Below are positions 52,898 to 64,000 of a stretch of DNA of 64,000 nt, in pieces. This DNA comes from Candidatus Woesebacteria bacterium. GTDB taxonomy: Bacteria; Patescibacteriota; Microgenomatia; UBA8517. Both the position numbers and the translations under genes were made by a program. The DNA lies in assembly GCA_016432365.1 (NCBI GenBank), contig CP066686.1:1002918-1066917 (forward strand), written 5' to 3'. The notes beneath the pieces were generated by a model. That model was not told the origin of the DNA, did no database searches, and worked only from the letters and a program-made list of their open reading frames with translations. Each line of letters opens with the position of its first letter. Position 1 is the stretch's first letter.

Positions 52898-52919
52898 TTC
52901 TATTTCAAGGTATTGTTCT

Positions 52920-53035
52920 GGCGATGAGATATTTTCGCGGTAGGTTGCCCCACAACTATCGTCTCCGCTGACCCGTTTCACTTCTGTGTTCGGAAAGGGA
53001 ACAGGTGGTACCAGGTCGCACAAATCACCAGAACA
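52920..53035 (-). rRNA. rrf: 5S ribosomal RNA
   Basis: Reverse complement matches the conserved 5S core: CGTTTCACTTCTGTGTTCGG...AGGTGG...CCAGG. Confidence 0.7.
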
Positions 53036-53289
53036 ATAACTTGAAAACAGAATTTAATTTTCTTGCAAGAAAATTAAACCTGGTTCTCTAATTTTTCAGA
53101 AGAAAAATTAGCAAATATCTTTTTTTAAGAAAAAGGCCGCGTCCCACTTATGTGAGGGATCGCAAGAAATCGACCAATTCGCATTAGTAGCCTTAATCCC
53201 TTACGGGACTTCCAGCGCTAACCGATTAACCCGATATTCTGTCGGGGGTCTAACGATACTTTCGTATCAGGAATCCTAATCTCGGAGGC

Positions 53290-53322
<33 letters not shown>

Positions 53323-53500
53323 GTTGGGAATGTAGCTACCCGGCGTTACTGCTGATGCAATAACCGGCACACCAGGGATTCCCCCAGGGAGGTCCTCTCG
53401 TACTGTCCCCAGCTCTCCTCAAGATTCCAACGCTTCTACAGGATAGAGTCCGACATAATTGTTTTAAACCCTGAACACACTCCTGTGTTTCAGGGACCTA

Positions 53501-53974
53501 CGATCGCTCGTAGGATCCGACTATATCTTTCCCTCATAGCCCTTTAGGGCGACGTGGGATTTGGCGTATAGTCTGTGAGGATTCCATAATAAAATCAAAA
53601 ATTAAAAATCAAATATCAAAAATGCAGATTGGAACTTTTGTCCCAATATTTACTTTTTAATATTTTATATTTGATATCACTATGGTCTTTCCTGCTGATT
53701 GTCCGCAGTTGCGCATTTTTACCACTTTTTAAATGGTAGTGCAACATACACCGGATTTTCCAGCAAATAGTCCCACTTCACTCTTCCGAGTTTCGTGGGA
53801 GCCGCCGTAGCCTTTCAGCGTAGGTGGCCCAAATTTATTTCCTGAACTGGTATCAGGATTCTATAGGTATAACAAAATATACTAAACCTCTACTTTCTAG
53901 TAAAAACTAGAAATGATTCACAACGTTGTATAGAAAGACAGCTTAGATTGTCAGCACAATATGTTAATGTGCTC
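53501..53974 (-). mobile_element. About 470-nt insertion in 23S at the conserved ...GTCGTGAGACAGTT | (T)AGGTCCCT junction: putative ORF-less group I intron
   Basis: Flanking exon sequences are contiguous in E. coli and Bacillus 23S. Upstream exon ends in T, and the insertion ends in G. Contains an AT-rich hairpin-like segment at 53575..53700. No ORF of 60 aa or more. Confidence 0.4.
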
Positions 53975-54009
<35 letters not shown>

Positions 54010-54477
54010 TCACTTTAACGGGCGAACAGACCGACCCTTGGCACCTTCTTCAGCGCCAGGATGTGATGAGCCGACATCGAGGTAGCGAACCGCGCCGTCG
54101 CTATGGACGCTCGGGCGCGACTACTCTGTTATCCCCGGGGTAGCTTTTATCCATTAAGCTCCGTGCACACCCATTGTGCATCGGAGGATCATTAAGACCT
54201 AGTTTCCTACCTGCGCGGGATGTATCCCTTGCAGTCAAGCTGGCTTAAACCTTTGCGCTTTACCCACCGTTTCCATCGGTGGAAAGCCAACCTTTGTGTC
54301 CCTGCGTTACATTTTGGCAGGGTACCGCCCCAGTAAAACTGCCCAGCAAACACGTTTCCCCTCGCCGTCTCCAGGCGAGTAAAGTAAGCTTCACATTTTC
54401 CAACGAGTGGTATTACATATTATGACGAATCTCCCACCTATTCTAGACAATCAAAAAATATGAAAGCAATGTCTACT

Positions 54478-54508
<31 letters not shown>

Positions 54509-55481
54509 ATGTAGAAGTAGGCCGCGTCTTCACAGCCATCGCTATTTCGCCGAGTAAACTCTCAAGACAGTTGCTAGCTCGTTACGCTATTCATGCGGGC
54601 CAGAACTCACCTGGCAAGGAACTTCGCTACCTTAGAACAGTTATAGTTACTGCTGCCGTTCACCGGAGCTTCAATTCAGAGCAATTCATCTTGCGACAAG
54701 CCACCCCTCTTCTTAACTTACCGGCACTGGACAAGCGTCAGCCCGTATACTTCGACTTTCGTCTTTGCACGGACCTGTGTTTTTGGTAAACAGTCGACTA
54801 GCAAACTTTCGGTGCCCCCCTCATAGCCTTACGGCGACGTGGGGAACCCATCTCCCAAAGTTACGGATAGTTTTTTTGCCGAGTTCCTTGAGAATTTGTC
54901 TCTCGATCACCTTAGGGTACTCCCCCAGTTCACCTGTGTCGGTTTGCGGTACGGCTTAGTTTGACTCTCGCTGCGAACCTTTTCCTGCAAACTGAAACGT
55001 TCAGAATCCCCCATCTCGCGACAGAGTTTACATGACTGCTCGATTAAACATACTGCGGGATTTTCCACACAATACTGTCTTGCAGCTTGAACCCAAATTC
55101 AATAATGGGCCCTGATTTTCCAATTTGGTCAATCCCCAGCTTATCCTTGCGGATTTTTCGATTCAAACCAAATAGTAGAATTTTGACTACTCTTCCATCG
55201 ACTACGCCAATATGGCCTCGCCTTAGGTACCGACTAACCCACTGTGAACGAATCTTGCAGTGGAAACCTTGAACATTCGGTGCTACCGATTCTCACGGTA
55301 ATTGTGCGCTACTCAAGCCGACATTCTCACTCCCGACCGCTCCACCATGTCTTACAACACAGCTTCACCGCTGTCGGAACGCTCCCCTACCACTCCGTCA
55401 TAATAAATTATGACAAAATTTCTAGCTTCGGCATACAACTTATCCTCGATAAATCTTGGGCGCACGCGCCCTAATCGACCA

Positions 55482-55538
<57 letters not shown>

Positions 55539-56104
55539 TTTCGGACACGTACTTCCTTTTAAACTTAGTTGTAATTTAGAGGCCTTAGCTGAAAATCTGG
55601 GTTGTTTCCCTTTCGACATATCAGCTTAGCCCGATATGTCTGTCTAGTATGATAATTAACGTTAGTATTCGGAGTTTAATTGAGTTGAATTGCTTGCGCT
55701 CTCCAACCCATCTAGTGCTCTACAGCCAACATAACTTTACATACCACGGTCCCTATAGACCTTTCGGGGAGAACCAGCTATCTCCAGGTTCGTTAGGTAT
55801 ATTGCCACTAACCACAAGTCGTCCCATGTCATTGCAACGACAACGGGTTCGGGCTTCCACAGATATTTCTATCTCCTTCACCCTGCTCATGGTTAGCTCA
55901 CCTGGTTTCGGGTCTGATCTAATTTTCTTTTCGCCTTTTAAGACTTGGTTTCCCTACGCCTCCCCAAATAACTTGGTTAGACTAGAAAATTAAAACAACT
56001 CGCCGGCTCATTCTTCAATAGGCACGATATCATCCTTTTAAGGGGACTCTATCGGATTGTTCGCAAACAGTTTCAGGTTCTATTTCATTGAGTGTTTCAC
56101 TCAG

Positions 56105-56141
<37 letters not shown>

Positions 56142-56330
56142 CTCTCTCATCTTATTTAGTCTTGGAGGATGGTTCCCCCCGTTTCCCACAGAATATGTGT
56201 TCCGTGGTACTTAGGAAATCCCTAGAGGCAAAATTAGTTTAATATACGAGGCTTTCACTCTCTGTGGCCGGCAATTCCATACCGTTCTACTACCAATTTT
56301 ACTCTCACATCGGGCTCCTGCAACCCCCCC

Positions 56331-56467
56331 ATGCACAGCACACGGAAATCAAAAGTTAAAATTTAAAAATCAAAAATACAAGTTAAAATTCAAAAGTTTT
56401 TATTTTTACTTTTGAATTGCACTTTTGCATTATGACTTTTGCTTTTTGAATTCCTTGTGCTGTGCAC
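56331..56467 (-). repeat. AT-rich hairpin insertion/expansion in 23S domain I, bounded by ATGCACAGCACA / TGTGCTGTGCAC inverted repeat
   Basis: The 107-bp A/T-rich core is homologous to the intergenic element at 32781..32893. Confidence 0.45.
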
Positions 56468-56481
56468 AAAGGTTTAGACTG

Positions 56482-56513
<32 letters not shown>

Positions 56514-56861
56514 TCGCTTGATTTATATTCCTCGCCCTACTGAGATGTTTCAGTTCGGGCGGTTCCCACATTAGCCTTTATAACATTCCTTGCGGAACAC
56601 ATTTGGAGGCTAAGTTTCCAGCAAAGCTGGAAGGGTTTCCCCATTCGGACACCGTCGGATCAATGGATCGTGGCTCCTACCCGACGACTATCGTGACCAT
56701 GTACGTCCTTTTTCGGAGATGAGAAGCAAGGCATTCACTGTCTGCGTTTCTTACTCTTGCGATCCCACACATCTCTTGCACATCAAGAGATTGGGACGCG
56801 ACCTTCTTCTTAAAAAAATATTTTCAAATTTTAACGTTCTATTTTCCGCCGCTAGACGGAT

Positions 56862-56910: not shown

Positions 56911-56936
56911 TTTAAATTCCTCTACCAAAAATTTTG

Positions 56937-57010
56937 TGGACCCGGGCGGAGTCGAACCGCCTGCCTCCTCATTGCAAATGAGGTGTTCAAGCCAGGTAAA
57001 CTGCGGGCCC
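56937..57010 (-). tRNA. tRNA-Ala (anticodon UGC), rRNA-operon spacer tRNA
   Basis: Reverse complement reads GGGCCCG...CCTCA-TTTGCAA-TGAGG...GGCGG-TTCGACT-CCGCC-CGGGTCC-A with G3:U70. Confidence 0.8.
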
Positions 57011-57082
57011 GTTACAACAAAATTTTTGTTCAGCCAGTGAGTCGCTTACGCGACCGCCTTCCGGCTAAAACTTTGGGCATTT

Positions 57083-57304
57083 TTATTTTTTAAGTGCAAT
57101 TCTCTTTTTCAAAGCTTCAACTTCGGCCTTTAGGTTTGCCACAATATCCTGCAAAACCTTGAGCTCACTACTGGCCAACTCTCCGGATGCTGATTCGTGG
57201 GCAACTCCCCTGAAATGCTTCATCCGAAAGTCAACTTTAGCCTCATACTCACTTAATTTTTTCAAAAGTGCATCTAATTTTTCTTTATCAGACAGGATTT
57301 TCAT
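57083..57304 (-). CDS. Small coiled-coil hypothetical protein
   Basis: 73 aa, heptad-like K/E/L composition. Confidence 0.35.
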   Translation of the reverse strand: MKILSDKEKLDALLKKLSEYEAKVDFRMKHFRGVAHESASGELASSELKVLQDIVANLKAEVEALKKRIALKK

Positions 57305-57574
57305 TTACTGTTCACTTTGAAGTCGGAAAAGACATTTTGAAGATACGAGCCTAATTCCGCTTAACCACGCAAATTTGCGCTTTTTGTTTTAGAAATTAGT
57401 GTAATTCTCATTAAATGCTCTTTGTTCCGATCAAAGACTAGTGGGATTATACCAAAGATCTTGCCCAAGCGTCAAGGCCCGTCTGACGGCCAGCACCCGC
57501 CGATAAATCTTGGCACGAAATGTGTATGAATAACACTGAAAAGTTGAGTACGAAGATATGGCGGGAAAAGCAGT

Positions 57575-57880
57575 TTAATCTCCTTTATACAAACCACTTT
57601 CCTCAATTCTTTTGTCCATCTCCTCTTCAGTCATATTTGTAAACACACGCCATAGAGATTTTAATTGATCTTTCTCCATCGTCGGCACCACTTCTGCTTC
57701 GGTTCCATCTTCGATGATTTTAGCTAAACAAGGAATCCCTCCTTCTTTTAGATGCTTAATCAGTTCCTCCCCTATAGCCTCTGCCATTACGGCGGCTTCA
57801 AATAAATCGGGTTGATAACCGATCTGATCTTCAACCATCTCTCCCACCTCTTGAGCGGTAACGGGTCGCCATTTTTCCAT
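57575..57880 (-). CDS. Small acidic hypothetical protein
   Basis: 101-aa ORF. Confidence 0.35.
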   Translation of the reverse strand: MEKWRPVTAQEVGEMVEDQIGYQPDLFEAAVMAEAIGEELIKHLKEGGIPCLAKIIEDGTEAEVVPTMEKDQLKSLWRVFTNMTEEEMDKRIEESGLYKGD

Positions 57881-57991
57881 AGAGTGGATTGTAAGTCACA
57901 TTGCACTATGGGTCAAGTTCTAAGGTTCATCCCAACCACCAACGCAAGACACGGTCCTTAAAGGTGTATATAGTTTTTCCGGAAGATGAAG

Positions 57992-58222
57992 CTAATCCAA
58001 AACCAGGTTTTTTTGGATTTTGACCACTTTCTTTTCCAAATCTTCAAATTCTTCAACGGTTGGTGCATCATCTTCAAGTCTCGCTATCTGAAGCCCCAAT
58101 TTGTCAATTCTTTTATCGACTTCGTCAAACCTTAGGCCTACACTCTTAAAACCCTCCCTCAGTTCCTTTTTAATTGAGGTTTGGCCATCTAAAAGCAGTT
58201 GGAGCATTTTTGCATCACTCAT
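57992..58222 (-). CDS. Small coiled-coil hypothetical protein
   Basis: 76 aa. Confidence 0.35.
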   Translation of the reverse strand: MSDAKMLQLLLDGQTSIKKELREGFKSVGLRFDEVDKRIDKLGLQIARLEDDAPTVEEFEDLEKKVVKIQKNLVLD

Positions 58223-58261
58223 ATTTCCATTATTGCATTACAACTTTTAAAGTCAAGCCAA

Positions 58262-58304
58262 CAAAAAAGGCGGGGCCTAATCAAAATGATTTTGGCGCCC
58301 GCCT
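58262..58304 (-). terminator. Conserved intrinsic terminator T1 (family of four)
   Basis: Minus strand reads GGCGGGCGCCAAAATCATTTTGATTAGGCCCCGCC followed by T7-8, directly after the stop of 58343..58864. Confidence 0.6.
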
Positions 58305-58342
58305 GGTTTACTTTAAAACTTTCTTTTTCCTGCAAGACCTTG

Positions 58343-58864
58343 CTACTCATTACAGTCCGGTACTTTAAACCGTGTCTCAAATCCAACTGTTGAATCCGGA
58401 CTCATTAGGGCGCGAAGTGTGTAAACACCCTCGGAAAAGTCCTCAGGAATGCCTGTGATAGCATCTGTCATTCCACCCTTAAGGACAAAGTTGTCCGCTG
58501 TGTCTTTGATGTACGCCAGAAAAGTGACGAACCCATGGGAAGACTCCACCACTAAATAGTAATTTCTCAATTCCGGCGGAAGATTTGTAATTATAACCAG
58601 CGCGATCTGCTGATATGGGTTTACACTGGAATACACACAGGACACCGTAATTTGTGGGCTGGCGACCCGATCAGAGTTTTGAGTAACTGCGGCTTCTGTG
58701 GAATTTCCATTGACAATAACTACGTCATACTCCACATAGGCGGATTCGCTTACAACTTCTTGTCGTGTTGTCTGCCCACCTGCAAACAGGACTATCAAGA
58801 TGGCAGCTAAAAATAACACCGTCAAGATTAACAGTCTATTTAAAATGCTAGAGTTCATGTTCAC
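58343..58864 (-). CDS. Small N-terminally anchored extracytoplasmic protein (array unit A, gene 4)
   Basis: TM LLILTVLFLAAILIVLFAG. Preceded by hairpin/Shine-Dalgarno element H1 and followed by T1. Confidence 0.5.
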   Translation of the reverse strand: MNMNSSILNRLLILTVLFLAAILIVLFAGGQTTRQEVVSESAYVEYDVVIVNGNSTEAAVTQNSDRVASPQITVSCVYSSVNPYQQIALVIITNLPPELRNYYLVVESSHGFVTFLAYIKDTADNFVLKGGMTDAITGIPEDFSEGVYTLRALMSPDSTVGFETRFKVPDCNE

Positions 58865-58942
58865 TCCTTCCGAGAAATTTGATTAGGAGCAGAATCCTTG
58901 CTTGGTAACTTACCAGCAGTCAAGGCCTTGCTCCTGAAAGTG
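58865..58942 (-). repeat. Intercistronic hairpin plus Shine-Dalgarno element H1
   Basis: Fills the whole gap from the stop of 58943..59482 to the next ATG. Terminal inverted repeat GGAGCA..TGCTCC encloses CAAGGCCTTG and TTGGTAAxTTACCAA palindromes. GGAAGGAG lies 7 nt before the ATG. Confidence 0.55.
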
Positions 58943-59482
58943 TTATTGGTACACACACCCCTCAGGCGTTACAGAACTATAGAACTCGTAGATATACACC
59001 GGGCCCACAATTGATGGCAATGCGCTCATCCCGTATGCGAAAAGGCAAAACTTCGCGTTCTGTGGTGCCAGGCGGACCCAAATTTTATCGGGTTTAAGGC
59101 CTGCCGGCGGCTCATAGGCTGTCAGTAAATCTCCGTCTGCGTTGAGGAAATAGATCGTCGAATCTTCAGACGCTCTATACCAATTCGAGTCCGAACGTTG
59201 GTGACTCGTCTGATAACTCACGATCTTTCCGTTGTGGAATTGCAATTCAACATAGACAAAAACCGGCAGATCGTACTCAGCCCCCAATTCGACCAAGGCT
59301 TCGTCTTCGGTCAAGATAAACGCTGCCTCAGGAGGTAATTGTGCCAAGGCACCTTGCCACCTGGCTATCATTTCGAGGTCTTTGATCTGATCAGAGCGGA
59401 CGCTCAAATCAGCAAGAACCAAAATGACCGACAAAAACAATGTTCCAATTGCGATCTTAGTGATAGATACGCCTTTGTTCAT
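58943..59482 (-). CDS. Small N-terminally anchored extracytoplasmic protein, paralog of 61210..61752
   Basis: TM IAIGTLFLSVILVLADL. Similar length and motifs (W..L.Q.P, YL.P) to the unit B first gene. Confidence 0.5.
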   Translation of the reverse strand: MNKGVSITKIAIGTLFLSVILVLADLSVRSDQIKDLEMIARWQGALAQLPPEAAFILTEDEALVELGAEYDLPVFVYVELQFHNGKIVSYQTSHQRSDSNWYRASEDSTIYFLNADGDLLTAYEPPAGLKPDKIWVRLAPQNAKFCLFAYGMSALPSIVGPVYIYEFYSSVTPEGCVYQ

Positions 59483-59573
59483 TTTTCCTCCAGAAAAATT
59501 TAAATATTAGGAGCAGAATCCTTGCTTGGTAACTTACCAACAGTCAAGGCCTTGCCCCTTTGAGTTTATTCGA
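59483..59573 (-). repeat. Intercistronic hairpin plus Shine-Dalgarno element H2 (TTTAAATATTAGGAGCAG variant)
   Basis: Same core TTAGGAGCAGAATCCTTGCTTGGTAACTTACCAACAGTCAAGGCCTTGCCCC. Confidence 0.55.
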
Positions 59574-59795
59574 TCACAACTGCCTCAAAATCTCGGCTAC
59601 TTTGTCATTCAAATCAGGTATTTCCAGAGAACTTGCGCTTTCCAACTTTTTATACAGACTTTTTAGTCTGGATACCAAATACAGTCTGTGCAAGATCAGA
59701 AAGATTATAAAACCACCCACTAAAAGAACCGTGGCCAAAAATGGGGTTGCCATTACTTCCCCAAAATCCGGACGATCCAAGAGATGTGCAAACAT
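59574..59795 (-). CDS. Tiny single-pass membrane protein (73 aa)
   Basis: TM FLATVLLVGGFIIFLIL. GGAAGGAGG Shine-Dalgarno sequence upstream. Plus-strand ORF 59560..59883 rejected. Confidence 0.4.
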   Translation of the reverse strand: MFAHLLDRPDFGEVMATPFLATVLLVGGFIIFLILHRLYLVSRLKSLYKKLESASSLEIPDLNDKVAEILRQL

Positions 59796-59871
59796 GAAAG
59801 CCTCCTTCCAATATCACGAACTTCCCGACACGCCGAGCCTCTCGGAGTTGTTCTTGCAAGGCCTTGCCAGA
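59796..59871 (-). repeat. Divergent intercistronic hairpin element (variant)
   Basis: GGCAAGGCCTTGCAAG palindrome plus GGAAGGAGG, at the same relative position as H elements. Confidence 0.3.
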
Positions 59872-60309
59872 TTAAGGTTTTAGAACCTTTTTCAGAGCTT
59901 CGACTCCTGTGATATATTCTGGATTAATTACCAGATCCGGCAAAATCTTTGAAATTTCAACCAATCGTCGATAGCTTTGGAGATAAACTTTCAAATCAGC
60001 CATCATTTCTCCAACAGACATGCTCTCGACAGTAGCTTTGTCACTACTCTTAGCACGAATCGTTTCCATCCTTCGATTGATTTCGTCCCATTCGCGCTTA
60101 AGCCTGATTTCCCGATCTATGCCTATTTTGAAGGCAAGACGTATAAACAAAGCGCACAGGCCCAGCGCTGTTAAACCCAAACCTGCACAAAATATAGCAA
60201 TGCCAAAATGTTTGGTGGAAAGAAAATTTACAACGTTGACCAAACTACCAATTGCGGTCATGAGGGCGAAAAACGCAGCCCCTAACCAAATATAACCACT
60301 TGGTTTCAT
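59872..60309 (-). CDS. Small two-TM membrane protein (array unit A, gene 1)
   Basis: Two hydrophobic helices, then a charged coiled C-terminus. Confidence 0.45.
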   Translation of the reverse strand: MKPSGYIWLGAAFFALMTAIGSLVNVVNFLSTKHFGIAIFCAGLGLTALGLCALFIRLAFKIGIDREIRLKREWDEINRRMETIRAKSSDKATVESMSVGEMMADLKVYLQSYRRLVEISKILPDLVINPEYITGVEALKKVLKP

Positions 60310-60550
60310 TTTTTCTCCTTGAATTTATGGGGTATACAACAAACAGTCCCACATGGGACTGGAAAATAAAGAAAGTTTTAAACGTTAATGTACAGTCGGC
60401 AGGATACCACATTTGAAGCTAAAAGTCAAATACTATAGGGGCGCAGTCCCGCAGCGTATAAGTCTTTAAAATAGCATGCAGACCCCGTATTCACGCTATT
60501 TCGACGCAAACACGCAGTATTTGGGAACAAGTAAGTTCTATGCTGGGGCC
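60310..60550 (-). promoter_or_regulatory. Repeated promoter-leader module A: TTGACT-17-TATCCT plus conserved 5' UTR hairpin CAGTCCCATGTGGGACTG
   Basis: -35 at 60414-60419 and -10 at 60391-60396 (minus strand). About 200 bp homologous to 61753..62035 and 63469..63685. Confidence 0.5.
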
Positions 60551-60593
60551 AAAAAAAAGGCGGGGCCTAATCAAAATGATTTTGGCGCCCGCC
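60551..60593 (-). terminator. Conserved intrinsic terminator T2
   Basis: Same GGCGGGCGCC...GGCCCCGCC-T8 sequence as T1. Confidence 0.6.
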
Positions 60594-60597
60594 AGTA

Positions 60598-60819
60598 CTA
60601 ACCTAGAAACATAAAAACCAACATCAGGATGCCTGAAACAATCGCCACCACTATCATTGTGGGTATGAATACATTCAGCATCTTGTTTACTTTCGATCTC
60701 AGTTGTCGCAACGGTACGCCAGGCATTAAAAGCCTGTATACCAGTGGGGACATGGCAATTCCCAAAACCAGCACCAAGAGGCTGATCCAAAAGATCCAAG
60801 AAAAGATCGTAAGAGCCAT
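60598..60819 (-). CDS. Tiny two-TM membrane protein (73 aa)
   Basis: Hydrophobic throughout. H3 element immediately upstream. Confidence 0.45.
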   Translation of the reverse strand: MALTIFSWIFWISLLVLVLGIAMSPLVYRLLMPGVPLRQLRSKVNKMLNVFIPTMIVVAIVSGILMLVFMFLG

Positions 60820-60901
60820 TTTTTCTCCTTCCGAGAAATTTGATTAGAAGCAGAATCCTTGTGTGGTATGAAAACCATAGTCAAGGCCTTGCCCCATTGA
60901 G
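60820..60901 (-). repeat. Intercistronic hairpin plus Shine-Dalgarno element H3
   Basis: Conserved ends. Apical part changed to TGTGGTATGAAAACCATAG while still self-complementary. Confidence 0.55.
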
Positions 60902-61120
60902 CTACCAATCACGCCGAGCCTTATCGAGCTCTACTTTCAAGGCTGCTTTCAAGGTCGGATCTTGCTCGGCTTCGTATTTTTTTTGCAATTCGATCTTTTT
61001 GTCGGTCGCCTTTATTTGCCCCCGAATGAGACGGAACATGAAAGCGAAAAACAAAATGCCAAAAAAGATGATCGGGTACAGCGGATCACAAAAATCGATT
61101 GATTGTGGGGAAAAGTTCAT
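60902..61120 (-). CDS. Tiny single-pass membrane protein (72 aa) with K/E-rich tail
   Basis: TM IIFFGILFFAFMF. Family with 62813..63013 and 62140..62307. Confidence 0.45.
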   Translation of the reverse strand: MNFSPQSIDFCDPLYPIIFFGILFFAFMFRLIRGQIKATDKKIELQKKYEAEQDPTLKAALKVELDKARRDW

Positions 61121-61209
61121 TTTCTCTCCTTCCGAGAAATTTGATTAGGAGCAGAATCCTTGTGTGGTATGAAAACCATAGTCAAGGCCTTGCCCCATTG
61201 AATAGTCGT
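61121..61209 (-). repeat. Intercistronic hairpin plus Shine-Dalgarno element H4
   Basis: Near-identical to H3. Confidence 0.55.
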
Positions 61210-61752
61210 CTAGAAGTCACAACCGTAACTAAACGATTCCCCTTTTGTCCAAATCTGAACAAAAGTCAATCCGCTTTCAAGACTGTAAGTCTCGACTTTT
61301 ACCACATTACGATACTCACAGTTGGGTACATCGTCGGGACTGAGATAGACAAAAAGATCGTCTGGTCCACCCGACTCAAACTTGTATGACCCAAGAATGT
61401 TTCCATCTTCATCGGCATACCAAAGTCTGCCGGGGATTTTAGCGATGGGCCAAGCCTCTGCCTCAAGGGCGTAGTGGTGCATCGGACTTAGGACTGCGGT
61501 TCCATTGTCGACCACGATCACTTCGTCCGAGTCATTGATAGGGATTTTGTACTTCTGCCCCAACTCGATACTGTCGAGATTTCGAGTCAGAATCATACCC
61601 GAGCCGGTAGGAACTTGATTCAAAAAACTGTTCCACTTAGCCAACTTGTCTAGCTCATATTGCTTGTGCTCCAAGCGGATAAATCCCAAGGATGCAATAA
61701 ACAAAATTGCCGCGGCCAATATCAATGGTAGACTTCCGTTTCGATATTGCAT
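61210..61752 (-). CDS. Small N-terminally anchored extracytoplasmic protein (array unit B, gene 1); start moved to Met-19 of the track ORF
   Basis: The upstream 18 codons of ORF 61210..61806 overlap the conserved leader. GAGAGGAGAAAAC precedes MQYRNG. TM LILAAAILFIASLGF. Confidence 0.5.
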   Translation of the reverse strand: MQYRNGSLPLILAAAILFIASLGFIRLEHKQYELDKLAKWNSFLNQVPTGSGMILTRNLDSIELGQKYKIPINDSDEVIVVDNGTAVLSPMHHYALEAEAWPIAKIPGRLWYADEDGNILGSYKFESGGPDDLFVYLSPDDVPNCEYRNVVKVETYSLESGLTFVQIWTKGESFSYGCDF

Positions 61753-62035
61753 GTTTTCTCCTCTCGAGAATTTGAATAGATTTGATGGATACAACGACAG
61801 CCCCACATGGGACTGAATAAGAAAGTTTAAAGCGTTAAAGTACGAGTAAAATGCCCTTTTTTAGAGCCTGCCATGATACCACATCTGAAGCTAAAAGTCA
61901 AATACTATGGGTACCAGAGCTAAAGCTCATAAGTCTTTAAAATAGCATGCAGACCCCGTATTCACGCTCTTTCGATGCAAACACGTAGTATTTTGAGAGA
62001 AAGTAAGTGTAATACTGGGGTCAAGACTACAGGAC
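61753..62035 (-). promoter_or_regulatory. Repeated promoter-leader module B: TTGACT-17-TATCAT plus conserved leader hairpin
   Basis: -35 at 61896-61901 and -10 at 61873-61878 (minus strand). Leader contains CAGTCCCATGTGGGGCTG. Upstream about 90 bp are conserved across copies. Confidence 0.55.
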
Positions 62036-62061
62036 ATGTACCAGCCCCGGTACATGTTTCA
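62033..62061. promoter_or_regulatory. Palindrome GGACATGTACC-AGCCCC-GGTACATGTTTC (copy 2) just upstream of promoter module B
   Basis: Same 9-bp half-sites as 42128..42154. Confidence 0.35.
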
Positions 62062-62095
62062 CTCCACCGGCAGGTACAAGCTTCATTCTACCAAA

Positions 62096-62139
62096 AAAAA
62101 GGCGGGGCCTAATCAAAATGATTTTGGCGCCCGCCTGGT
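62096..62139 (-). terminator. Conserved intrinsic terminator T3
   Basis: Identical core to T1 and T2. Abuts the stop codon at 62140. Confidence 0.6.
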
Positions 62140-62307
62140 TTACTTTGAAACTTTCTTTGAATCTGGTTTGTATAACCTGTCCAGGTCAATATGGATTTTT
62201 TCCAGAGTGTCATTAATCACTCTCAACCATGAACATATCATACTGGCACCAACCACGATGCCAAAAAAAATGACCAAACCAGCGATGATTAGACCGACAA
62301 TCTCCAT
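62140..62307 (-). CDS. Tiny single-pass membrane protein (55 aa; below ORF-track cutoff)
   Basis: Minus-strand translation is MEIVGLIIAGLVIFFGIVVGASMICSWLRVINDTLEKIHIDLDRLYKPDSKKVSK. Preceded by H5 and followed by T3. Confidence 0.45.
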   Translation of the reverse strand: MEIVGLIIAGLVIFFGIVVGASMICSWLRVINDTLEKIHIDLDRLYKPDSKKVSK

Positions 62308-62410
62308 TCTTCCTCCTTCGGAAAGAATTTAAATATTAGGAGCAGAATCCTTGCTTGGTAACTTACCAACAGTCAAGGCCTTGCCCATATGAGTCCAGTT
62401 GACAGCCTGA
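62308..62410 (-). repeat. Intercistronic hairpin plus Shine-Dalgarno element H5
   Basis: TTTAAATATTAGGAGCAGAATCCTTGCTTGGTAACTTACCAACAGTCAAGGCCTTGCCC variant. Confidence 0.55.
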
Positions 62411-62734
62411 TCAATCCTGAATTTCGATGTATATCGGCCTGTCAAAATCAAATGGTTTCAACACCGTTTCGATACCAAACAAGGACAGTGTATCAAAAAG
62501 GACAACCTTGTACGGATCGCCTACTTCGATAACCGCAATCAGTTGATTGTTGTCATCTTTGATTGCGACCAGATATGAACCATCGTGACCTGGAATTGAA
62601 AGTGTGTGTCCGGTTTCGGCCACCTCGGCATGCCAATCGAAAGATTTCAGCAGCCTTCCGGCTTGTCTCAGGTAATCGACCAATATAAACCTTTTGGTCA
62701 GGCGACCTATACGTCGAACGTAGAATGTAGCCAT
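62411..62734 (-). CDS. Small soluble protein ending ...IYIEIQD, paralog of 63741..63983
   Basis: Shared VAETG/VAETD and C-terminal (F/Y)IEIQ motifs with the unit D gene. Confidence 0.45.
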   Translation of the reverse strand: MATFYVRRIGRLTKRFILVDYLRQAGRLLKSFDWHAEVAETGHTLSIPGHDGSYLVAIKDDNNQLIAVIEVGDPYKVVLFDTLSLFGIETVLKPFDFDRPIYIEIQD

Positions 62735-62812
62735 TTTTTCTCCTTCCGAGAAATTTGATTAGGAGCAGAATCCTTGCGCTCTAAAGCTTTCAAGGCCTGC
62801 TCCTAAAAAGGT
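62735..62812 (-). repeat. Intercistronic hairpin plus Shine-Dalgarno element H6
   Basis: Perfect terminal inverted repeat TTAGGAGCAG...CTGCTCCTAA. Middle replaced by a GCGCTCTAAAGCTTTCAAGG palindrome. Confidence 0.55.
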
Positions 62813-63013
62813 TTATGTTTTTGCACGAGCCTCATCAAGGCTTTTTTGAATATCTTTCCGCGCCGTCTCTCCAGCTTTCTCAAGCTGTGATTCCAACCGT
62901 GGAATCACAATGAATTTCAAATAAATTTGATAGCCGAAAACCGAAAAGACCAGGAGAGTTCCCAATACAGCCATGATCATAAAGACTGGGGCCATTGCTT
63001 CGTCAAATCCCAT
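62813..63013 (-). CDS. Tiny single-pass membrane protein (66 aa) with K/E-rich tail
   Basis: TM VFMIMAVLGTLLVFSVFGY. Confidence 0.45.
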   Translation of the reverse strand: MGFDEAMAPVFMIMAVLGTLLVFSVFGYQIYLKFIVIPRLESQLEKAGETARKDIQKSLDEARAKT

Positions 63014-63099
63014 TCTTCCTCCTTTGGAAAGAATTGAATGTTAGGAGCAGAGACCTTGCTTGGTTTAAACCAACAGTCAAGGCCTGCTCCTATGATTGT
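63014..63099 (-). repeat. Intercistronic hairpin plus Shine-Dalgarno element H7
   Basis: TAGGAGCAGAGACCTTGCTTGGTTTAAACCAACAGTCAAGGCCTGCTCCTA. Apex GGTTTAAACC keeps the palindrome. Confidence 0.55.
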
Positions 63100-63468
63100 C
63101 TATTTCATGATCTGCCCGTACGGAATGGGGTCAAACCAGTCGAGGCTGTAAAAACCCGTGTGACCATCCATGAACAACACCTTTGCGACATTTTCGTGAA
63201 TCGAAAGAATCACGACCGGTTCGCCCGGGGTGTAGACATACTCGCCCAGATATTCCTGCGTAGGATTCTGGGTTTCAGCCAAGGCTGAACTTACATACAC
63301 AGTTTGGCCAACCACGGGCTCAAAAATCGGTAGGTCAATACCAGACCCGACCTTGAAGCCGATGTTAAGGCTGACGATGCCAACGATGGTCATCACCAAC
63401 CCGGCGAAGACGAACATGACCAACTGATTGCGCAATTTAATGCCTGGATCTTCAAATTGAATTTCCAT
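63100..63468 (-). CDS. Small N-terminally anchored extracytoplasmic protein (array unit C, gene 1)
   Basis: TM LVMFVFAGLVMTIVGIVSL. Preceded by promoter-leader module C. Confidence 0.5.
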   Translation of the reverse strand: MEIQFEDPGIKLRNQLVMFVFAGLVMTIVGIVSLNIGFKVGSGIDLPIFEPVVGQTVYVSSALAETQNPTQEYLGEYVYTPGEPVVILSIHENVAKVLFMDGHTGFYSLDWFDPIPYGQIMK

Positions 63469-63685
63469 TACTTATTCTCCTTTGAATTTTGAATTTGATG
63501 GATACGGTAACAGCCCCACATGGGACTGATAAATAAAGAAAGTTTAAAGCGTTAAAGTACGAGTAAAATGCCCTTTTTTAGAGCCTGCCATAATACCACA
63601 TCTGAAGCTAAAAGTCAAGTTATAGGGTATCCCAGTTCCCCCAAATTGTTTCTTGGAGCCAAAAAATTGGCATATATTTTTTAAA
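63469..63685 (-). promoter_or_regulatory. Repeated promoter-leader module C: TTGACT-17-TATTAT plus conserved leader hairpin
   Basis: -35 at 63613-63618 and -10 at 63590-63595 (minus strand). Leader with CAGTCCCATGTGGGGCTG. Confidence 0.55.
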
Positions 63686-63734
63686 ATAAAAAAGGCAGGC
63701 ACCTAACCACAAAAATGTGATTTTGGCGCCCGCC
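63686..63734 (-). terminator. Conserved intrinsic terminator T4 (variant left arm GGCAGGCACC)
   Basis: Same loop CAAAAATGTGATTTTG-like palindrome and A/T run. Follows the stop of 63741..63983. Confidence 0.5.
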
Positions 63735-63740
63735 TAGTAC

Positions 63741-63983
63741 TTACTGAATCTCAATGAAAACCACCCTATTGGACAACAGTCCCTCGACCATATCCACAAT
63801 GAACCGGTGTGCCGATGTGTCAAACAACAAGATCTTGAATGGCTGATCCTCAGGGATAGCTGCAATCAACTTGCCCTCTTTTGTCTTGATTGTCAACGAC
63901 AACGGTCTATCCGTTTCGGCAACCCGAATGGAATCTCTGAATCCGTCTTTTTGGATCTCATAACCGGGAAACAGCCAGGTCAA
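63741..63983 (-). CDS. Small soluble protein ending ...VFIEIQ (array unit D)
   Basis: Paralog of 62411..62734. Confidence 0.45.
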   Translation of the reverse strand: MTWLFPGYEIQKDGFRDSIRVAETDRPLSLTIKTKEGKLIAAIPEDQPFKILLFDTSAHRFIVDMVEGLLSNRVVFIEIQ

Positions 63984-64000
63984 ACCGAAAATGTGCTCAA

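Follow-up and report, generated by a model that had tools for sequence, protein, structure and literature searches.

The 23S rRNA gene on the minus strand of the window (the whole 64-kb stretch of DNA that was analysed) is interrupted by a 522-nt element that is very probably a group I intron lacking an ORF. The insertion point follows U2604, within the central loop of the peptidyl-transferase centre. The element is not a chance resemblance, given that the Rfam group I model matches it with an E-value of 7e-7 and that at least 52 homologous introns occupy the identical position. It is an ORF-less addition to a class of insertions published in 2024, and both the site and the class were already known (Tsurumaki et al. 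2024, J Bacteriol, PMC11270868). Its points of interest are an unusual insert beside the catalytic core and the wide spread of its family outside the CPR.

The boundaries of the element were determined by aligning the region with the Rfam LSU model. In the segment from 53100 to 54300, the 3' part of the 23S gene matched model positions 2307-2912, and 537 nt of inserted sequence stood against 15 model positions. The large insertion in the 23S gene claimed in the original prediction is thus present. Read on the minus strand from 54200 to 53300, the gene runs to ...AACGUCGUGAGACAGUU and is followed by foreign sequence, so that a conserved 23S stretch is split as ...ACGUCGUGAGACAGU | UCGG.... The LSU alignment picks up again with high posterior probability at UCGGACUCUAUCCUGUAGAAGCG, window position 53453, and the covariance-model alignment and the homologous introns both place the restart of the exon at this position (UCGGACUCUAUCC). 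Under the numbering of E. coli K-12 rrlH, GACAGUUC corresponds to G2599, A2600, C2601, A2602, G2603, U2604, U2605 and C2606, and the insertion point lies between U2604 (53976) and U2605 (53453). The element is flanked by three Us where E. coli has two. We chose the boundaries GACAGU | 53975..53454 | UCGGAC because they keep the length of the exon, leave a U before the intron and place a G at the intron end. These boundaries rebuild GACAGU|UCGG, which is the E. coli sequence GACAGUUCGG, and they give the true mature rRNA. The predicted spliced junction is GACAGU-UCGGACUC; the 23S exon motif before the insertion site is GAGACAGU, and the intron-less site reads CGTCGTGAGACAGT/TCGGTCCCTATC.

The insertion had originally been predicted to extend from 53974 to 53501. 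The 5' end was right to within 1 nt, the ambiguity arising from the UU at the junction, while the 3' end fell 47 nt short according to the LSU alignment, the homologous introns and the pairing of P9. The TAGGTCCCT at 53500, which had been taken for the resumed exon, was rejected as such: it belongs to the intron, where it makes up the 3' strand of P9 (UCGUAGG, which pairs with CCUACGA) and the start of P9.1, and it resembles UCGGUCCCU by chance. The two group I hallmarks that had been named at the splice sites are both present, since the 5' exon ends in U 53976 and the insertion ends in G, but the real terminal G is 53454, and G 53501, the proposed omega-G, is internal. The automatic 23S gene call stops within the intron, at 53930.

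The insertion site is a universally conserved single-stranded stretch by A2602 in the central loop of domain V, and not the tip of a helix. The interrupted gene is the one 23S gene in the 64-kb window, and its exons are well conserved, with a 5S gene downstream (53032..52916) and a tRNA-Ala(UGC) gene upstream. The host appears to be a CPR bacterium of the Microgenomates group. Its 23S exon sequence shares 93% identity with a metagenome contig, 83% (825 nt compared) with a MAG of the Microgenomates group, and 74% with one assigned to Candidatus Amesbacteria. Pfam matches are absent for most of the neighbouring proteins. The coordinates of the gene, the intron and its structural elements are collected in Table 1.

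Table 1. Window coordinates of the 23S rRNA gene, the inserted element and its structural parts, the latter in 5' to 3' order.
Feature	Position	Strand	Sequence or character	Basis
23S rRNA gene	53170..56761 (3' end ~53170)	minus		Rfam LSU_rRNA_bacteria, 2045 bits
Exon 1	56761..53976	minus	23S rRNA gene	
Exon 2	53453..~53170	minus	23S rRNA gene	
Intron	53454..53975	minus	522 nt, ORF-less, very probably group I, site L2604	
P1 5' exon strand	53976..53981	minus	GACAGU (E. coli G2599-U2604)	rrlH numbering, unconstrained MFE fold
P1-loop hairpin	53953..53973	minus	AGCACA...UGUGCU, subfamily-specific	MFE folds
Internal guide, P1 3' strand	53937..53942	minus	GCUGUC, intron positions 34-39	Pairs with GACAGU in MFE fold
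P2 with inner hairpins, P2.1	53839..53935	minus	UUCUAUA/UAUAGAA; CCUGA...UCAGG	Folds, z = -2.7
P3 5' strand	53829..53834	minus	AUUUGG, completed by C 53770 after the insert	Family consensus AAAUYYGGC / GCCRRAU
58-nt insertion	53771..53828	minus	P3/J3-4 border	Absent from L056, L126 and the other members retrieved
J3/4, P4, P5-P5a-P5b arm	53693..53770 (arm 53759..53702)	minus	P4 UGCUGG / UCAGCA	P and Q boxes, folds
P6 with long AT-rich extension	53579..53692	minus	GGA/UCC	MFE -31.7 kcal/mol, z = -5.3
P7 5' strand (R box)	53567..53573	minus	GACUAUA	Covariation
P3 3' strand	53559..53565	minus	GCCAAAU	Covariation; compensatory with L056 UUUAGC/GCUAAA
P8 hairpin	53531..53558	minus	CCCACGUCGCCC-UAAA-GGGCUAUGAGGG	Folds; J8/7 directly after, as in the family
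P7 3' strand	53519..53525	minus	UAUAGUC (S box AAGAUAUAGUC)	Rfam alignment, covariation
P9	53497..53514	minus	CCUACGA-GCGA-UCGUAGG, 7-bp stem, GCGA tetraloop	Covariation
P9.1 hairpin	53469..53495	minus	CCCUGAA-ACACA-GGAG-UGUGU-UCAGGG	Folds
3' tail, omega-G at 53454	53454..53468	minus	UUUAAAACAAUUAUG	Exon 2 starts at U 53453 (U2605)

The original prediction had identified the insertion as a candidate ORF-less group I intron and had proposed an Rfam scan and a P1-P9 folding as checks. An Rfam search of 1.2 kb returned Intron_gpI (RF00028) over the full length of the model at 34.7 bits (E = 7e-7). The window copy falls short of the gathering score for this family, which is 50 bits, and the score is probably lowered by two lineage-specific insertions, one of 58 nt at P3/J3-4 and one of about 85 nt in the AT-rich P6. 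By eye we recognized the core boxes P (AUUUGCUGGAAAAUCC), Q (ACAAUCAGCAGG), R (CCUCACAGACUAUACG) and S (AAAGAUAUAGUCGGA). When the intron and short stretches of both exons were folded without constraints, the minimum free energy structure had an energy of -175.1 kcal/mol (z = -8.9) and recovered P1, the P1-loop hairpin, P4, P5/5a/5b, P6 with its extension, P7, P8, P9 and P9.1. With P3 added from the family comparison, the core that had been asked of the folding, including P3/P7 and the predicted guanosine-binding pair, was recovered. The Rfam alignment itself assigns P3 to GUGGGA/UCCCAC. We rejected this assignment, since comparison across the family gives P3 as AUUUGG-C/GCCAAAU; UCCCAC opens P8, and GUGGGA is the 3' end of the 58-nt insert and pairs inside it. 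The intron lacks P7.1/P7.2 between P7 and the 3' strand of P3, a criterion that places it outside the IA type. The longest ORF within the intron is 43 aa and none reaches 60 aa, as had been predicted.

Homologous introns were sought by scanning species-representative genomes with CGTCGTGAGACAGTDR, which combines the exon with its abnormal continuation, and at least 120 loci were obtained. Among the matches listed, a full insertion lies right after GACAGU and ends ...UG before UCGG at 51 loci, and 17 loci carry a natural C2606A variant without an insertion. Thirteen of the pattern matches that gave no extracted intron were compared with E. coli 23S; 11 of these show no 23S homology and were discarded as chance 16-mer matches (Streptococcus mitis, Bartonella, Kocuria, Halomonas and others). 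The 51 listed loci, an intron on a metagenome contig (L126) and the window copy make up our set of 53 introns. All 53 have GCUGUC in their first 35 nt, and the ...UG end before UCGG is found in 51, the remaining two being extraction artefacts. The introns in this set are 253-782 nt long, and some of them carry a LAGLIDADG gene in P6 while others do not. When ten same-site loci were scanned, eight matched Intron_gpI at 53-84 bits (gathering threshold 50), including the closest relative among the matches listed, an intron from a Microgenomates-group MAG (L056), at 61 bits.

We examined covariation in this set. A plain MAFFT alignment of 23 full introns was dropped because the P1 and P3 of the window copy were misaligned. 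In its place we aligned four motif-anchored, gap-free core modules per intron, giving 110 columns for the 53 introns; the window's 58-nt insert was removed by hand beforehand. The structure tested comprised P3, P4, P5, P6, P7 (as a pseudoknot) and P9. Pairing was observed in 99.0% of 1716 cells across 52 distinct sequences, a value to be read with the fact that the module patterns were derived from the consensus, which favours in-register alignment. Both sides change in 21 of 33 pairs, and each of the six helices contains at least one compensatory pair. In the shuffle control, 0 of 500 replicates matched any of five measures, and when partners were slid by 1-3 columns the fraction paired was 26-41%. 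P3 is 100% paired with five of six pairs covarying; P4 (100% paired) and P5 (97.6%) both show compensatory changes; P7 is 96.7% paired with two covarying pairs; and P9 is 99.7% paired with six of seven pairs covarying and a GCGA loop in 50 of the 53 introns. Within P7, the pair G53573-C53519 (columns 63/87) is invariant in the 52 distinct sequences. We predict that this is the guanosine-binding pair, by analogy with the R and S boxes of the Tetrahymena intron. Taken with the Rfam match, the core, the same-site homologues and the LAGLIDADG genes found in relatives, the covariation supports the proposal that the element is a group I intron without an ORF.

Exon 1 ends with U 53976, which pairs with the internal guide as a U·G wobble at the 5' splice site. 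The exon strand of P1 is invariant, which makes covariation impossible there. The window intron, L056, L126 and a partial sequence, L125, make up a subfamily whose common traits are the P1-loop hairpin, GACAAUCUAAGCUGUC, GUCGGAUC and the tail AACAAUUAUG. The window intron and L056 are 62% identical, and compensatory changes within the subfamily fall in the P1-loop hairpin, P2, P2.1, P3 and P9. Thus, in the P1-loop hairpin GCACA/UGUGC is replaced by GCAUA/UAUGC in the comparison with L056 and L126. By eye, the P2 and P2.1 counterparts are CUUAUA/UAUAAG and CCUAA/UUAGG in L056, and CUAUAUG/CAUAUAG and CUUGUA/UACAAG in L126. No convincing P10 pairing with the 3' exon was found for the window intron, where the host exon has CGGAC instead of CGGUC; in many relatives, (G)ACCG near the intron start pairs with exon CGGU(C).

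The window copy differs from its closest relatives by two peripheral modules that they lack, the 58-nt insert at P3/J3-4 and approximately 85 nt in P6. The insert separates AUUUGG from the C needed to complete the 5' strand of P3; with one bulged G, it can equally be placed at the beginning of J3/4. Two hairpins form within it (MFE -26 kcal/mol, z = -4.3), and the second has a GGAA tetraloop and an internal loop that is symmetric (GAA/GAA). Should splicing still take place, the P3/J3-4 position would tolerate a 58-nt, two-hairpin module, and this module might be a tetraloop-bearing tertiary clamp. A metagenome scan with GCTGACAATCTAAGCTGTC yielded two true subfamily matches (the partial L125 and L126) and two further matches that are chance occurrences in a radical-SAM-like gene. 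No relative with the 58-nt insert was found among these metagenome matches or the family members retrieved, and no second copy of it turned up when the window and the fetched loci were searched by blastn. We also considered whether the insert or the P6 arm could be a repeated mobile hairpin. This was rejected: blastn of the window and loci gave one weak match, a low-complexity alignment (28/32) to the other insertion in this 23S gene, which we did not count as evidence.

The additional P6 sequence corresponds to the AT-rich, hairpin-like module noted in the original prediction. The gain of about 85 nt relative to the nearest relatives produces a 114-nt, nearly continuous AT-rich hairpin with a GC content of about 0.24-0.32. 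In the family, this is the slot of the endonuclease gene. The spacing between the Q and R boxes, measured across P6, falls into three classes: 36-53 nt in minimal introns (mostly 37-45 nt), 450-503 nt in all introns that are 696-782 nt long, and 105-211 nt in a handful, among them the window copy at 123 nt. The long introns encode proteins of approximately 155-200 aa with a single YxxGFxDGEG motif, and the three that we tested matched Pfam LAGLIDADG_1 at 74-90 bits. On the basis of its position, the AT-rich hairpin of the window copy may be the leftover of a lost endonuclease gene; a tblastn search with family-intron ORFs of at least 60 aa, LAGLIDADG genes included, found no endonuclease remnant in the P6 extension. 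Since the window intron has no endonuclease gene, it would not home by itself and would be inherited passively. The 53 members form a natural series for the gain and loss of homing endonuclease genes, and the family could be mined for compact ribozymes and for new rDNA-specific meganucleases.

The site lies two nucleotides from A2602 in the peptidyl-transferase centre, and removal of the intron would therefore be required. We infer that a functional ribosome needs this removal and that the cell consequently depends on the ribozyme. In the pathway we propose from these features, the primary transcript would fold into the P1-P9 ribozyme and free guanosine would dock at the G-C pair of P7 (53573/53519). 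The bound guanosine would then attack the phosphate after U 53976, held in P1 by GCUGUC through the U·G wobble, and the freed 3'-OH of U2604 would attack after the terminal G 53454, joining GACAGU to UCGGAC in a continuous 23S rRNA. Across the family, cutting of intron-less rDNA by the LAGLIDADG enzyme, followed by repair, presumably spreads the intron.

An improbable alternative is that the element has a group I intron as its ancestor and has lost the ability to self-splice, so that splicing depends on a host or trans-acting protein or the 23S copy is non-functional. The window copy scores 34.7 bits with Intron_gpI versus 53-84 bits in relatives, it contains no maturase or endonuclease gene, and its 58-nt insert, seen in no other member retrieved, adjoins the core and could impair folding or, together with the long P6 arm, cripple the ribozyme. 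However, all core helices are intact, the columns that are invariant across the 53-intron core alignment are by definition kept, and both insertions fold as self-contained hairpins that are able to project away from the core. This alternative is further opposed by the well-conserved exons and by the presence of a sole 23S gene within the 64-kb window; CPR genomes usually have a single rRNA operon (PMC11270868).

It is much less probable still that the insertion is an expansion segment retained in the rRNA, or an RNase III-type intervening sequence cut out without religation to leave a fragmented 23S. Insertions that are not introns are numerous in CPR 23S genes (PMC11270868), and the same 23S gene carries a second insertion of the hairpin-tip type, about 131 nt long, at approximately 56472..56326. 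The present element, in contrast, interrupts the conserved single strand GACAGU|UCGG near A2602 and not the tip of a variable helix, it has a complete group I core with covariation in a multi-helix ribozyme fold and not a single stem, and its homologues carry homing endonuclease genes. The expansion-segment alternative raised in the original prediction is thus not supported. Another intron type, either group II or the archaeal bulge-helix-bulge type, has next to no likelihood: CPR 16S genes do contain group II introns that carry LAGLIDADG genes, but the CPR 23S survey found no group II introns (PMC11270868), no group II Rfam family matched the region even at E-values up to 10, the intron begins with UGAGC and not GUGYG, and the host 23S scores as bacterial.

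Several known systems resemble the proposed group I intron. The Tetrahymena thermophila LSU intron (L1925) has R and S boxes that are near-identical to those of the window intron (CACAGACUA.A.G and AAGAUAUAGUCGGA.C). Both introns end in G, have a U·G wobble where the 5' exon is cut and possess an extended P5 arm, and they differ in host, site and peripheral domains. The bacterial 23S intron sites L1917, L1931 and L1951, with examples in Coxiella and Simkania, lie in domain IV and represent separate lineages, whereas the window intron is in the central loop of domain V. The original prediction had described the site as a classic target of LAGLIDADG endonucleases in organellar and CPR rRNA genes. 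Its organellar part does not hold as stated, because the Chlamydomonas reinhardtii chloroplast intron Cr.LSU with I-CreI is at L2593; the window insertion, at L2604, is 11 nt downstream (U2604 vs U2593). The 22-bp I-CreI target (CAAAACGTCGTGAGACAGTTTG) overlaps the 2604 site. Single-motif LAGLIDADG enzymes of the I-CreI type act as homodimers. Cr.LSU and the archaeal IA3 introns at LSU/2593 resemble the family of the window intron in occupying the same conserved stretch of domain V and in having a single-motif LAGLIDADG enzyme.

An archaeal survey includes LSU/2593, with IA3 introns, and not 2604 (PMC6125680). Bacterial 23S group I introns, those of Thermotoga included, appear in a passage of PMC3984707 that cites Nesbo & Doolittle 2003. 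The CPR part of the earlier description of the site stands. In a survey of 348 CPR 23S genes, Tsurumaki et al. counted position 2604 among the recurrent sites at which the group-I-type insertions predominantly encode LAGLIDADG_1, with ORF-containing, ORF-less and partly deleted forms coexisting at the same sites (PMC11270868). According to the authors, several of their numbered sites, 23IS13 among them, had no earlier report of a group I intron in known bacteria (PMC11270868); judged by the order in which the sites are listed there, 23IS13 would be position 2604. The window intron is like this CPR class in its position, its group-I-like RNA and the occurrence of ORF-containing and ORF-less forms at one site. 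LAGLIDADG_1 is predominant and not obligatory in that class, and the window copy is without an ORF.

In the searchable literature the designation "L2604" is absent and the site is reported for the CPR alone. The same intron family occurs here in many non-CPR phyla, which lie outside the coverage of that survey (PMC11270868). Among the matches listed, the 51 named hosts comprise 6 with a CPR label and 23 with an Actinomycetota label, and the others include Omnitrophota, Acidobacteriota, Chloroflexota, Armatimonadota, Planctomycetota, Elusimicrobiota, Myxococcota and Dormibacterota. The joint proposal that the L2604 lineage is a broad bacterial 23S family and not a CPR speciality, and that the window copy adds a new peripheral domain at P3/J3-4, is one that we advance tentatively and regard as rather doubtful in its entirety. 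Some host labels are perhaps unreliable; two contigs of MAGs labelled "Gammaproteobacteria" (L012 and L013) carry CPR-like 23S genes with multiple introns. Several family introns are located on megabase contigs or complete chromosomes, for example OY969921.1, OZ252240.1 and CP070684.1, which makes mis-binning unlikely for those introns.

Among the matches listed, the family of group I introns inserted after U2604 of 23S rRNA (E. coli numbering; L2604 introns) is present in many MAGs from outside CPR (loci among L007-L122 of those compared, L020 and L079 being two examples). Actinomycetota account for 23 of the 51 named hosts among these matches, and Omnitrophota, Acidobacteriota, Chloroflexota, Armatimonadota and other groups are also represented among them. 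Several of the non-CPR introns are located on megabase contigs or chromosomes, for example OY969921.1 (L107), OZ252240.1 (L065) and CP070684.1 (L105). In the literature searched, we found no report that names site 2604 for hosts outside CPR; the sole paper found that names the site deals with CPR only.

NZ_AP027616.1 (locus L002, positions 1-2911) is labeled 'Escherichia coli plasmid pLR-72_4' in RefSeq, and consists of a 2911-bp circle that holds one 23S rRNA gene and nothing else. The 5' end found in E. coli is missing from this 23S gene, whose sequence also departs from that of K-12 rrlH, so the record is probably a contaminant or a mis-assembly. The 23S genes of L012 and L013, two MAG contigs labeled as uncultured Gammaproteobacteria, align with that of E. 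coli in many pieces, with breaks near positions 2087, 2256/2263, 2450, 2500 and 2604. These breaks correspond to several introns within a single 23S gene. Since multi-intron 23S genes are typical of CPR, the Gammaproteobacteria label may be wrong.

Inspection of the 5' regions by eye revealed a box, CUGUUAUAAAU, directly upstream of P3 in the family members that possess a P2 domain, namely L095, L055, L046, L057, L056 (the closest relative of the window intron, from a Microgenomates-group MAG) and the metagenome contig L126. By the same means, this box resembles the guide-plus-junction box of the minimal members, GCUGUCUAUAAAU, and this likeness suggests an insertion or duplication as the origin of the P2 domain. 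Also by eye, UGUUA is complementary to a conserved UAACA close to the 3' end of the family introns.

The sequence GACAGUUAGGUCCC occurs without an insertion in at least 17 loci, including L009, L023, L029, L047, L058, L063, L068, L075, L078, L081, L084, L093, L096, L099 and L114, most of which are Candidatus Enterousia or Rickettsiales-type alphaproteobacterial MAGs. These loci have an A where E. coli has C2606, and this A is a natural variant in a part of the peptidyl-transferase center whose sequence is almost universally conserved.

Rfam detected no 16S rRNA gene across the whole 64-kb window, the 57011..64000 segment ahead of the tRNA-Ala gene included; therefore, the 16S gene is either unlinked to the 23S gene or more than 7 kb away from it. 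A cmscan search of the whole window called the 23S gene as 56761..53930, which places its 3' end within the intron rather than at 53170. An automatic annotation of the contig would thus let the gene stop at a wrong 3' end, with the final ~280 nt of exon lost.

Features in and around the 23S rRNA gene of the window
Feature	Position	Strand	Remarks
tRNA-Ala(UGC)	57010..56936	minus	sole RNA gene in the Rfam scan ahead of 23S; 5S follows 23S
Second 23S insertion	~56326..56472	minus	~131 nt vs 6 in the Rfam LSU model

The second insertion lies at the tip of a domain I hairpin (model position ~283 in the Rfam LSU alignment) and is very AT-rich, with a GC fraction of 0.19. Folding predicts a single long hairpin (-49.5 kcal/mol, z = -8.8), and the element looks like an intervening sequence or an expansion-type insertion, not an intron. 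It matches the AT-rich P6 arm of the window intron at 28 of 32 positions, a weak, low-complexity similarity.
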